Assembly (NCBI GenBank): GCA_041663145.1
Contig: JBAZRG010000003.1
Span: forward strand, 1,000 to 64,999
Length of the DNA stretch: 64,000 nt
From: Minisyncoccota bacterium
GTDB lineage: Bacteria; Patescibacteriota; Minisyncoccia; Phycocordibacterales; PALSA-1337
Direction of reading: 5' to 3'
Shown: positions 46,835-49,831 of the stretch, piece after piece
Layout of the letters: each line of letters opens with the position of its first letter
Numbering within the stretch: position 1 is the first letter of the stretch
Notes under the pieces: model-generated
The model's database searches: none
What the model was told of the DNA's origin: nothing
What the model saw: the letters and a program-made list of their open reading frames with translations, nothing else
Made by a program: the position numbers and the translations under genes

Positions 46835-47014
46835 TAATACTTTAGCGCTATTGACATATACCATACACATGGTGTACAACAGTACAAGTAATTAAGCTCA
46901 TTTTCAACCTATTTTGCGAACCCAGTAGGTGAACCTGCTGATTCACATCGCCATAGCAGAAAGTGGCTCATTCGTGGGCTATTCTCTGCTATGGCGATAA
47001 GGTAGCCCTCTAGC

Positions 47015-47710
47015 ATGTTAGACAGAAAACAAACATGCTCCTCGAAAGAGACAGCATTCATACTGGAGATATTCCACATGAATACGCACACATCAGCACA
47101 ATCAAAGAAGTTCATTGAACTCTTGGAACAGAAATGGGTTACTCCCGAACGTTTCCAAACAGTTCTCGGAAGTGGCATCCTGAGCGATATCTTTGAAGAA
47201 AAGGCGACGCTCAGCAATCGTTTCGCCGTCCGGCAAGCTCTCTGCCTCGGTCCGCTTCCGTCAGAACCGATCGTGCTCATCGTTGACTACGGTCAGACGC
47301 TAGAGCAGATGATCGTCGCCGGTCGCTACGACTGGAAGAACGATGATATCACCGTGTCGCGGTTCCCGATCGAAGGGAAGGGCACGGTCGAATTCGAAGC
47401 CGTTCTCTTTCACTTCGACAAGGACATTTCGTCCGAGGATGCCAAGAAGCAGATCGAAGAAGCTGGCTACGAAGTCGGCAAGATCGAGCACGTGCTCTCC
47501 TTTGGGGCAAATTACCCCGAAGAACAGAGGAAGTTCCCGATCGTCGGTCTAGGCTCCGTTGGGGAGGTCGGTGGCCGCCGCTACGTTCCGGACCTGTACG
47601 GGGACGGTTCCGATCGCGACCTGAACCTCGGTTGGTGGGACAGTGACTGGGATGCCGACTGCCGCTTCCTCGGTGTTCGCAAAAAGGTCTCTCAGATCTC
47701 AGTGTCTTGA
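47015..47710 (+). CDS. DGR variable (target) protein; C-terminal variable repeat region, GC-rich gene (about 57% GC)
   Basis: C-terminal ...GGRRYVPDLYGDGSDRDLNLGWWDSDWDADCRFLGVRK carries the VR. Actual start may be ATG 47081 (MNTHTSAQ). Confidence 0.7.
   Translation: MLDRKQTCSSKETAFILEIFHMNTHTSAQSKKFIELLEQKWVTPERFQTVLGSGILSDIFEEKATLSNRFAVRQALCLGPLPSEPIVLIVDYGQTLEQMIVAGRYDWKNDDITVSRFPIEGKGTVEFEAVLFHFDKDISSEDAKKQIEEAGYEVGKIEHVLSFGANYPEEQRKFPIVGLGSVGEVGGRRYVPDLYGDGSDRDLNLGWWDSDWDADCRFLGVRKKVSQISVS
47542..47680 (+). repeat. DGR variable repeat (VR)
   Basis: 139 nt aligned to TR 48144-48272 with about 19 differences, 18 of them at TR adenines. Confidence 0.8.
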
Positions 47711-47751
47711 TTCCTCGAGCTTGTCTCTTGGAATCTTTGACCCTTGGTCCC

Positions 47752-47779
47752 GCACGGCGTATGCTTCAAGCTACGCCGT
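47752..47779 (+). promoter_or_regulatory. 9-bp stem hairpin 70 nt downstream of VR (DGR homing-associated stem-loop candidate)
   Basis: cacggcgta-tgcttcaagc-tacgccgtg. Confidence 0.5.
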
Positions 47780-48143
47780 GTTTTCTATTCAGCAGAATTT
47801 TCTAATTGGTGCTATACTAATCCCCGACAAGTGAAAAATCTAAGGTCAACCACAGTAGGTGATTCTACTGAATCAGGCTTTAGGTAATTTGTCCGCAACC
47901 TCCGCGACGAGAGTTTGAACAGTCAACCCAGTGGTCATTGTGCTCAGTGAGGCTTTTCAAAGAGTGCCGCAGAGTGTTCTCTAAAAAATCAGAGACAGTT
48001 GGTGTGAGAAGCTAAGTGATGTTCAGTCAATAAATAATATTGGTGAATGACCCAGTAGGTGATTCAACTGAATGAGATCACGGATTCGATACAGTCTACG
48101 CGAAGCTATCGGTAGGCAGTGGGATGGACAGCTTTTCGCACAA

Positions 48144-48272
48144 GGCTCCGTTGGGAAGGTCAATGGCAACCGCAACGTTCCGTACCTGAACAGGAACGGT
48201 TCCAATCGCAACCTGAACCTCAATTGGTGGGACAATGACTGGAATGCCAACTACCGCTTCCTCGGTGTTCGC
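48144..48272 (+). repeat. DGR template repeat (TR); overlaps artefactual Asn-rich ORF 48072..48293
   Basis: In-frame translation is AAC/AAT-rich (NGNRNVPYLNRNGSNRNLNLNWWDNDWNANYRFLGVR), the TR hallmark; hairpin ctcctgagaattctcaggag at 48283-48302. Confidence 0.8.
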
Positions 48273-48274
48273 CA

Positions 48275-48706
48275 CTATTGCTGTTTCTCCTGAGAATTCT
48301 CAGGAGTTTTGTTTTGAAGTTGTCGTCTCCAACCCCCAAGCATCCTACCTATCTCTGCAAACTTCTCTGCCAAGTGAGCATATTTCTTATTATCCAACGC
48401 TCTGATTTCCCACGAAAGCTGTAGAAGCAGTTTGACCAGATCAACTTTGGATATGCTTTTGTTCAATAATAATCGCTTTTCCTCGGTATGCGTATAGCTT
48501 GCAAGAAAGGCATATTCAATCGCTTCAAGAAACAAGATATCGATTTTTGACCCGATAGTATAACGGTTTGCTTTGGGGAAGTGTGTAAGGTAATTCTGCC
48601 AGATTGCGTATGTGTCTTTCAACTTCAGCACTACAGGAATCAATCTAATAGGCTGTGTTTTTCCTCTCTCTCTCTCTCTCTCTCTCTCCATCATTCCGCC
48701 CCACAC
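48275..48706 (-). CDS. avd: Avd-like accessory variability determinant (four-helix-bundle, 23S-rRNA-IVS protein family) with N-terminal (ER)n extension
   Basis: YAIWQNYLTHFPKANRYTIGSKID...LVKLLLQLSWEI matches the TIGR02436-type helix pattern (LxxWQ..FPKxERY); encoded divergently from the RT. Confidence 0.55.
   Translation of the reverse strand: MWGGMMERERERERGKTQPIRLIPVVLKLKDTYAIWQNYLTHFPKANRYTIGSKIDILFLEAIEYAFLASYTHTEEKRLLLNKSISKVDLVKLLLQLSWEIRALDNKKYAHLAEKFAEIGRMLGGWRRQLQNKTPENSQEKQQ
48663..48690. repeat. (CT)14 dinucleotide microsatellite in the avd-RT divergent region
   Basis: ctctctctctctctctctctctctctct; encodes (ER)n at the Avd N-terminus and (SL)n in the unlikely RT leader. Confidence 0.9.
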
Positions 48707-48730
48707 TTATTTCTGTTTCTAAATTATTCA

Positions 48731-49713
48731 TGATGTACAACCATATCATATCCTTAGAAAATTTGCTCGAGGCCTGGAAAGAATTTCTTAAAGGGAAGCG
48801 GAGCAAGAAAGATGTGCAGGAATTCCAATATAAGCTTTCTGATAACATATTTGCGCTTAATGCCGATCTAAGAAATAAAACCTATGTACATGGGGGATAT
48901 TATGCTTTCAATATTTCTGATCCAAAACCAAGAAATATTCATAAAGCAAAAGTACGGGATAGGCTTTTGCATCACGCACTCTATAGGAAGCTTTATCAAG
49001 TATTCGATATACATTTCATTCATGATTCATATTCGTGCCGAAAGTTTCGGGGAACTCATCGAGCATTGAAGTGTTTCAGAAAGTTTGCACTCAAGGGTAG
49101 TAAGAATAATACAAAGACATTATGGATCCTGAAATGCGATATAAAAAAGTTTTTTGCTTCAGTTGATCAGAAAATTCTTGGTGAAATTCTGAAAAAATAT
49201 ATTACTGACCTTGATGTTATCGACCTTATTAAGCGAGTGACTGACAGCTTCAGCAGTACGGCTGTTGGGAAGGGATTGCCGTTAGGAAATCTGACATCGC
49301 AGCTATTGGTGAATGTATACATGAATGAATTTGATCAATTTATGAAACATGATCTGAAGGCTAAATATTACGTCCGCTATGCTGACGATTTTGTTATCAT
49401 GAGTAGAAATAAGACATGGCTTCAAGCGATCTTGATACAGATAAGCGATTTCCTATATGAAAGATTAGCGTTGAAACTCCACCCAGACAAAATCAGCATC
49501 AAGACGTTCGCTTCAGGAGTGGATTTTTTGGGATGGGTTAATTTTCCTGATCACAGTGTCTTACGGACAACAACCAAAAAAAGAATGTTTAATCGACTGA
49601 ACATAAGTAAAGGTAAGCGGGAAGTTTTAAGTTCGTACATCGGATTATTGATTCACGGTAATAGCAAAAAACTAAGAAATAGAATTGAAAGGGAATATGA
49701 TAACGATAAATAA
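48731..49713 (+). CDS. DGR reverse transcriptase
   Basis: NLLEAWKEFLKGKRSKK N-terminus; motif 4 GLPLGNLTSQLLVNVYMN (SQ rather than the group II SP); motif 5 YVRYADDFVI. Track ORF starts at 48655 through the microsatellite; ATG 48731 is preferred. Confidence 0.85.
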
Positions 49714-49757
49714 TGAATGACGAAAAGAACCGATAAAAACTCCCGGTGAAAAAAATT

Positions 49758-49786
49758 TGACTTCGTCTATAACTAGGTATACTATG
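49758..49786 (+). promoter_or_regulatory. sigma70-like promoter TTGACT-17-TACTAT upstream of secE
   Basis: ttgacttcgtctataactaggtatactat, then the short hairpin cccc-agga-gggg + T-run at 49797-49812. Confidence 0.4.
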
Positions 49787-49831
49787 TATATGTAATCCCC
49801 AGGAGGGGTTTTTTAATAAAAAGACAAAAAT

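Follow-up and report, generated by a model that had tools for sequence, protein, structure and literature searches.

The window analysed here is a 64,000-nucleotide stretch of contig JBAZRG010000003.1 (assembly GCA_041663145.1) from a Minisyncoccota bacterium, and it carries a cassette that we read as a chromosomal diversity-generating retroelement (DGR) of the Patescibacteria (candidate phyla radiation, CPR; Paceibacteria). The target gene with its variable repeat (VR), the template repeat (TR), an oppositely oriented avd gene and the gene for the reverse transcriptase (RT) follow each other in the order termed B3; the cassette would produce a TR RNA of its own and hold a candidate switch within avd. 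To this reading we assign a probability of about 0.85. As a DGR, the locus is one further member of a catalogued class and its layout is ordinary. A structured leader with its own promoter and terminator, together with a simple-sequence tract in avd, may be hitherto undescribed features of the whole clade.

The repeat pair and the reverse transcriptase identify a DGR

The main parts of the cassette are the following:

47078–47710, plus strand: target gene, 210 aa counted from M22; an in-frame ATG upstream, at 47015, would give 231 aa
47551–47680, plus strand: VR, encoding GSVGEVGGRRYVPDLYGDGSDRDLNLGWWDSDWDADCRFLGVR, aligned without gaps to the TR over 130 nt
47662–47680, plus strand: 3′ end of the VR (CCGCTTCCTCGGTGTTCGC), resembling an initiation of mutagenic homing (IMH) site, identical in VR and TR and lying past the last A-type difference
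48143–48272, plus strand: TR, encoding GSVGKVNGNRNVPYLNRNGSNRNLNLNWWDNDWNANYRFLGVR; 32 adenines in 130 nt
48275–48706, minus strand: avd open reading frame (ORF), matching PF22296 (bAvd) with 44.1 bits (cutoff 40)
48275–48694, minus strand: avd as read from an in-frame ATGATG (48694–48689), 139 aa, in frame with the core
48730–49713, plus strand: DGR RT gene, 327 aa, RVT_1 match at 1e-23, motifs LGNLTSQ and YADD
49794–49819, plus strand: terminator-like hairpin with a T-run after the RT gene (terminator scan)

A mechanical repeat search of positions 46000–51000 returned one long direct repeat, with an offset of 592. TR and VR differ at 18 of their 130 positions, 17 of them TR adenines and the remaining one a T>G change at 48183. 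With 32 adenines in the 130 nt of the TR, the binomial probability that at least 17 of 18 mismatches fall on A is 6.2e-10; when the repeat is stretched to 137 nt it contains 21 mismatches, 19 at A. The initial annotation of this DNA had placed the VR at 47542–47680 and the TR at 48144–48272, with about 19 mismatches, 18 of them at A; the adenine bias stands, but the boundaries were a few bases off and the count was off by one mismatch. Of the TR adenines, 31 out of 32 occupy codon positions 1 or 2 of the VR frame, and 12 codons are AAY. Variation affects 18 codons, only one of which can turn into a stop, and about 1e18 peptides are possible. The VR differs at 17 of the 32 TR adenines (53%); in the Bordetella phage DGR, about 50% of the adenines are changed per homing event (PMC6182149). 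The window holds a single VR and a single TR.

The identical 3′ end of the repeats is 19 nt long and GC-rich, the flanks diverge right after it, and by analogy with the Bordetella phage DGR (PMC5758913) we consider it a putative IMH. The nearest hairpin 3′ of the VR is about 70 nt off and looks like the terminator of the target gene.

The best match of the RT in the PDB is bRT, the RT of the Bordetella phage DGR (8ub7; E 8e-43, residues 4–303), with LGNLTSQ and YADD aligned to IGSLTSQ and YMDD of bRT; retron-type and group II intron RTs in the PDB score about 1e-19. Both the YADD motif and the SQ-type motif named in the initial annotation are seen in the translation. At least 8000 homologues exist and, among the matches listed, those with a source name are Patescibacteria. 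The Joint Genome Institute (JGI) label of RT homologues is "retron-type reverse transcriptase", as would suit a retron, a group II intron or a defence RT lying beside a duplicated gene fragment. We rejected that reading, whose likelihood is negligible: the mismatches fall specifically on adenines (P 6e-10), the RT is far closer to bRT than to retron-type or group II intron RTs, the cassette includes a bAvd match, and 41 other loci have the same cassette, each with its own A-only TR/VR pair.

Over 41 loci, the substitutions at TR adenines were A>G in 503 cases (64%), A>T in 145 and A>C in 137. T>G was the commonest (12) of the rare changes at other TR bases.

Layout of the cassette in related loci

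For comparison, 80 loci with target homologues were taken from GTDB species genomes (130 species had such a homologue); the 84 loci analysed comprise 83 fetched ones and the window. The arrangement target (plus), avd (minus) and RT (plus) was found in 43 of the 43 related loci having avd and RT nearby. A TR/VR pair of about 129 nt was present in 41 of these 43 loci, 785 of 815 differences coinciding with TR adenines, and in nearly all of the 41 the 3′ end of the TR lies 0–40 nt from the avd stop codon.

The layout had been described in the initial annotation as non-canonical, a claim that does not hold. B3, defined by Wu et al. (2018; Nucleic Acids Research 46:11) as TR-(avd)-RT with avd reversed, accounts there for 90% of CPR DGRs, and all 43 related loci have this order; the coordinates of the window likewise give TR, opposite-strand avd and RT, with no other accessory gene. 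The claim of a complete DGR is borne out, since adenine-specific TR/VR differences, a DGR-type RT, a bAvd and a target modelled with a C-type lectin fold were all found, and the Avd-like gene reported antisense between TR and RT is the minus-strand ORF matching PF22296. The window cassette and the B3 CPR DGRs of Wu et al. (2018) are alike in gene order, orientation and host group, the layout being without difference, and both have a small target with a C-terminal VR and no Pfam domain. The parts of that paper that were consulted do not mention a structured leader, of a hairpin with a U-tract, of a simple-sequence tract in avd, or of a homopolymer or frameshift in that gene.

A putative self-contained TR RNA

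Between the target gene and the start of avd coding on the other strand, the following RNA-related features were recognized:

47810–47818, plus strand: extended −10-like box, TGCTATACT (consensus of the relatives TTTTTTGnTATAAT), TATAAT-like and within an AT-rich stretch
47826–48142, plus strand: structured 5′ leader, 317 nt, a conserved block running from GACAAGTGAAAAATC (47826) to the TR
47838–47847/47876–47885: leader helix P1
47900–47908/47966–47974: leader helix P2
47914–47924/47951–47961: leader helix P3
48002–48013/48130–48141: leader helix P4, 12 bp, adjoining the 5′ edge of the TR
48017–48020/48077–48080: leader helix P5
48094–48100/48113–48117: leader helix P6
48287–48315, plus strand: hairpin after the TR, CTCCTGAG-AATT-CTCAGGAG followed by TTTTGTTTT (terminator scan)

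When the target–TR regions of the relatives are aligned, their order is a target-end hairpin, an AT-rich stretch with the box and the conserved leader block. The −10-like box forms a block of conserved columns directly upstream of the leader, and this conservation suggests a promoter role. RNAalifold, applied to 36 loci, predicted 49 pairs in six helices, 40 of them with compensatory changes (9 of the 12 pairs in P4). Among the leader cells, 94.2% are paired, versus 41–47% when the partners are slid by 1–3 columns; the covariation score is 0.716, versus 0.15–0.18 in the slid controls, and none of 500 shuffles reached the observed values. Lineage-specific insertions are found in the loops of P1, P3 and P5. 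Folding of the window RNA as a single sequence recovered P1, P4, P5, P6 and the terminal hairpin. A further pairing of 6 bp given by RNAalifold, leader CAGUUG with TR UGACUG, was dropped, two-sided change being seen in only one of its six pairs.

A scan of positions 46500–50000 with Rfam 15 at E ≤ 1 returned no family, bar a chance snoRNA match, and the RT-associated motifs of Weinberg et al., including RT-10 (the phage spacer RNA), had no match in the same interval. A covariance model built from the 3′ half of the leader found one copy in the window.

The hairpin after the TR begins 14 nt past the end of the TR homology, within the last avd codons of the other strand. Among 21 related loci tabulated, 20 have a hairpin with a UUUUGUUU tail 9–16 nt (mostly 14) after the TR; in one locus (L030) a different stem was picked, 26 nt after the TR. 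In the tabulated hairpins the base of the stem is conserved (CUCC/GGAG), its upper part covaries, and the 9-nt tail contains 6–8 T. Hairpins were also seen across about 38 loci. A stem-loop just 3′ of the TR was reported in 207 of 278 Avd-containing DGRs and assigned to Avd binding (Handa et al., bioRxiv 10.1101/2023.10.23.563531); by analogy, the hairpin of the window probably corresponds to this Avd-binding element and also terminates the TR RNA. We read the TR RNA, from its sequence features, as the product of a self-contained gene that spans about 490 nt, from 47826 to around 48315. The initial annotation held that a TR–RT transcript would have to read antisense through avd, which is probably wrong, the TR having a unit of its own with box, covarying leader and hairpin plus U-tract.

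In the alternative, the RNA would resemble that of the Bordetella phage: a single transcript from upstream of the TR through antisense avd into RT, with the elements for priming and RT binding 3′ of the TR. We regard this as rather improbable, even though in the phage the RNA 3′ of the TR is indispensable, with cDNA synthesis primed from A56 of the spacer, Sp (PMC6182149; 10.1101/2023.10.23.563531), downstream stem-loops and upstream/downstream duplexes are predicted in many DGRs, including those of CPR (10.1101/2023.10.23.563531), and the window yielded no RT promoter. Such a transcript would collide with avd transcription, and it would have to pass a hairpin and UUUUGUUU tail kept at a near-fixed distance in 20 of 21 loci. 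Handa et al. (10.1101/2023.10.23.563531) also include in their model a stop duplex formed by the sequences that flank the TR on either side. In the loci of the clade, the 40 nt before the TR and the 130 nt after it showed no conserved pairing with each other; instead, the 40 nt upstream pair with the leader, with the compensatory changes noted for P4. As P4 pairs with the upstream leader and not with downstream sequence, the structured RNA elements seem to be placed 5′ of the template here and 3′ in the Bordetella phage.

Two short motifs were observed in the leader. A hairpin motif of about 26 nt, CAGTAGGTGATTCnACTGAATnAG, occurs in the loop of P1 (47851–47876) and in that of P5 (48051–48076), with weaker copies in the loop of P3 (47933–47956) and just upstream of the target gene (46920–46949), and nowhere else in the 64 kb; the P1-loop copy is common to L001, L003 and L011. 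A protein may bind this hairpin, or the motif may be a tiny mobile insert. The single-stranded motif GTCCGCAA (47887–47899) is similar to the TR 3′ end, GTTCGC(N)AC (48262–48276). In a divergent subgroup the two change together, to GGCCGAAT and GTYCGAAAC; being one phylogenetic event, this points weakly to a link between leader motif and TR end.

A candidate slipped-strand switch in avd

Gene callers place the avd ATG of the relatives 1 nt before the RT ATG (TCATGATG or TCATAATG). In the window this usual start of the clade, at 48731–48729, is out of frame, and translation from it would run into a stop after MNNLETEISVGRNDGERERERERKNTAY; the ATGATG at 48694–48689, with GGGGCGGA upstream, is in frame. 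A PDB sequence search with Avd gave chance matches only and no solved homologue. The palindrome CATG (48729–48732) contains both start codons, that of avd and that of RT, which overlap head-to-head. Because of this overlap, the promoter of each gene must lie within the other gene, and no promoter of either was identified at the locus. The avd start codons are separated from the core by a simple-sequence tract:

48664–48687, no strand assigned: (CT)12 tract, read as (GA)n in the avd sense

The tract sits 43–66 nt upstream of the RT ATG. In nearly every related locus, a tract is found between the avd start and the conserved core (LIPVVLKLKD). In the closest relatives of the window it is (CT)n on the plus strand, with n of 6–17; the alternative in other relatives is an uninterrupted G8–13, which reads PPP in the avd sense, in genomes of about 40% GC. 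An automated ON/OFF count from the canonical avd start was unreliable, the head-to-head ATG not being found in 21 loci, and we used instead the nearest upstream open ATG. By this approximate analysis, about 13 loci have that ATG in frame with the Avd core and about 16 have it out of frame. In a strain assembled ten times, eight assemblies have n = 10, one has n = 9 and one n = 11, the flanks being identical. A full-length Avd of 149 aa results from n = 9 alone; the other lengths lead to a stop just past the tract. Two further loci, L024 and L029, are 99.9% identical over 1842 nt, and their sole indel, G10 versus G9, is the difference between in frame and out of frame. As the window has an in-frame start at ATGATG though its usual start is out of frame, two of the three tract phases could be productive in its subclade.

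From these sequence comparisons, the (CT)n or poly-G tract looks like a slipped-strand on/off switch of avd. The contingency loci of Neisseria, Haemophilus and Campylobacter likewise have their tract in the 5′ coding region, from start codon to functional core, and their tract length likewise differs between near-identical genomes, in or out of frame, as it does among the relatives of the window. Here, in contrast, the gene gated would be an accessory factor of hypermutation and not a surface antigen, and the host is an uncultured CPR bacterium. Of the features that characterize a contingency locus, tract position and length polymorphism were seen in the relatives. Full-text literature searches, of incomplete coverage and therefore amounting to absence of evidence only, surfaced no paper on phase variation, repeats or frameshifts in DGRs.

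The tract could have functions other than switching: it could encode a linker (ERER or PPP), form a 5′ element of RT, or promote transcriptional slippage or ribosomal frameshifting, which would supply Avd at a fixed ratio whatever the DNA tract length, the observed lengths then being assembly noise. We judge this unlikely, while granting it appreciable weight. In its favour, a length difference was seen in only two near-identical comparisons, about 16 of 29 loci are out of frame, which could mean that the frame is corrected in expression, and the tract lies close to the RT ATG, at the 43–66 nt given above. Nevertheless, the repeats stay uninterrupted (C8–13 or (GA)6–17) in genomes with a GC content of about 40%, although mixed codons would serve a plain PPP or ER linker equally well, and they always lie between the start codon and the conserved core. 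Furthermore, the assemblies that differ have identical flanks, or 99.9% identity over 1842 nt with the tract as the sole indel, and the resulting reading frames match exactly what a contingency locus would give.

Activity and diversification

The strain with ten assemblies described above is a sibling whose RT is 78% identical to that of the window; the assemblies come independently from ten samples, and nine of them were compared. Its TRs are identical and its VR occurs as two alleles that differ at 23 sites, 23 of 23 at TR adenines. Between related loci the TR is 93–99% identical, the rest of the target gene 67–92% and the VR 78–87%, the VR differences falling mostly on A sites; L005 and L006, for instance, share 99.2% of the TR and 81.7% of the VR, with 22 of 23 differences at A sites. 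As the two sibling alleles differ only at TR adenines, sequence comparison indicates that the clade is diversifying now.

The element of the window might nevertheless be a relic, intact as a cassette and inactive, with TR/VR differences dating from past activity. The out-of-frame usual avd start, the one non-A difference (T>G at 48183) and the existence of decayed relatives, such as a locus (L022) with target and leader remnant and with nusA replacing TR-avd-RT, would suit that view, which we hold to be rather improbable. The ORFs are open and the catalytic motifs intact, the in-frame ATGATG with its upstream GGGGCGGA gives an Avd of 139 aa, the 17 of 32 TR adenines that differ come near to the roughly 50% per homing event of the Bordetella phage, and diversification is ongoing in the sibling strain.

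The target protein

The start of the target at 47078 was set by 184 homologues, because these are about 210 aa long. The initial annotation had claimed a small target of about 210–231 aa, and the resulting length of 210 aa agrees with it and with the homologues. Homologues with a source name are Patescibacteria; one of them, with 100% identity, has a Candidatus Paceibacterota metagenome-assembled genome as its annotated source. A Pfam search with the target protein matched no family. Modelling of the fold, which the initial annotation had proposed, gave a C-type lectin: the N-terminal part of the protein is modelled as helical, and the VR falls within a C-type-lectin-like domain at the C-terminus. 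In the family alignment, invariant scaffold residues (G, V-P, S-R, L-L, W, W, R-F-L) alternate with positions that differ in every member. The variable proteins Mtd, TvpA and the archaeal AvpA are alike in this respect: the VR makes up the last strands of their C-type lectin fold, and its variable positions are interspersed with conserved scaffold residues (W, G, R-F-L).

The target gene is followed by one more feature:

47753–47785, plus strand: terminator-like hairpin, CACGGCGTA, a 10-nt loop and TACGCCGTG, then TTTT

The simple terminator scan overlooked this hairpin, its loop being longer than 8 nt; the alignment of the target–TR region has an equivalent at the same place in related loci.

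Comparison with the Bordetella phage BPP-1 DGR

The window cassette and the BPP-1 DGR (mtd-avd-TR-brt; 8ub7 series) have homologous RTs (E 8e-43) and Avd proteins of the same family. In both, mutagenesis is A-specific with about half of the TR adenines changed, the target is a C-type lectin, the repeat has a GC-rich IMH-like end, and a stem-loop stands directly after the TR. Unlike in BPP-1, a 140-nt spacer RNA 3′ of the TR would fit into the window cassette only as antisense to avd; the helix at the 5′ edge of the TR pairs with the upstream leader, not with a downstream spacer; the Rfam motif RT-10, the spacer RNA of the phage, has no match; and the element is chromosomal, whereas that of BPP-1 is phage-borne.

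Genomic surroundings

On one side the cassette is flanked by a SIMPL/DUF541 gene (Pfam) at 45995–46834; the genes at 49832–51072, on the other flank, are tentatively read as secE-nusG-rplK. The cassettes of relatives (L001, L003, L084, L094, L097, L101) adjoin unrelated genes, such as those for H+-PPase, SNase, RNase H, PGK and RuvA, and from these differing gene neighbourhoods we deduce that the cassette, or its surroundings, moves. The GC content is sharply split inside the cassette, with 53–58% in the target (47100–47850), 33–39% in RT (48750–49800) and about 41% in the flanks.

In 40 of the 84 loci a target homologue is present and avd and RT are absent within 4 kb; some of these loci lie on cut contigs. 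We considered these 40 loci as remote targets; at least one of them is a decayed cassette. The leader covariance model still matches several loci without avd and RT, these loci including L022, L031, L054, L066 and L068. L022 (4661–4772) has kept the target and a leader remnant, with nusA where TR-avd-RT would be expected, and looks like a decayed cassette.

Proposed mechanism and its weight

The following sequence of events is proposed. Transcription of the TR would yield a separate RNA of about 490 nt (from 47826 to around 48315), made up of the 317-nt leader behind the −10 box, the 130-nt template and the hairpin with its U-tract, which would end transcription ahead of the convergent avd. 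The hairpin would probably also dock Avd, as the corresponding element does in the Bordetella phage. The RT–Avd complex would copy the TR into cDNA, misincorporating at adenines, and the cDNA would replace the VR up to its GC-rich IMH-like end, recoding the 18 variable codons into any of about 1e18 possible peptides. Slippage of the tract would turn Avd, and thereby mutagenic homing, on or off; it would gate mutagenesis because bRT has no activity without Avd (PMC6182149).

That the whole clade combines a separate, terminated and permuted TR RNA, with its structure 5′ of the TR, and a slippage-gated avd that turns hypermutation stochastically on and off is a tentative proposal, to which we give slightly less than even odds. 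The conserved structured part of this RNA would consist of the six covarying helices, about 215–317 nt, including a duplex at the expected cDNA stop.

Several points weigh against the reading given at the outset. The ends of the TR transcript are predicted ones, and the hairpin with its U-tract could leak, allowing some read-through toward RT. No promoter elements of RT were identified, a simple promoter scan giving no more matches than in shuffled sequence, and any RT promoter must lie inside avd because the intergenic space between the two genes is zero. An RNA role for the sequence 3′ of the hairpin is possible, and conservation there is indecisive, since avd coding constrains that sequence. 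Production of Avd in the window is uncertain, the usual start being out of frame and only the internal ATGATG in frame. The switch state of the window and the activity of its own element are likewise predictions; no second assembly of the window strain was found, and a metagenome scan with the TR-end pattern gave four contigs, none of them from that strain. Finally, the length difference in two of the ten assemblies mentioned above could reflect mixed populations or assembly error and not a regulated switch.

Significance

Very little is known, to our knowledge, about the control of DGR activity. If the proposed role of the tract is true, a contingency locus would be in control of a diversity generator, and the cost of constant self-mutagenesis would be kept down by a simple heritable switch, the length-variable avd tract. 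The covarying leader offers concrete helices for mutation, and the cassette, being shorter than 3 kb, could be reconstituted in E. coli although CPR bacteria are uncultured.

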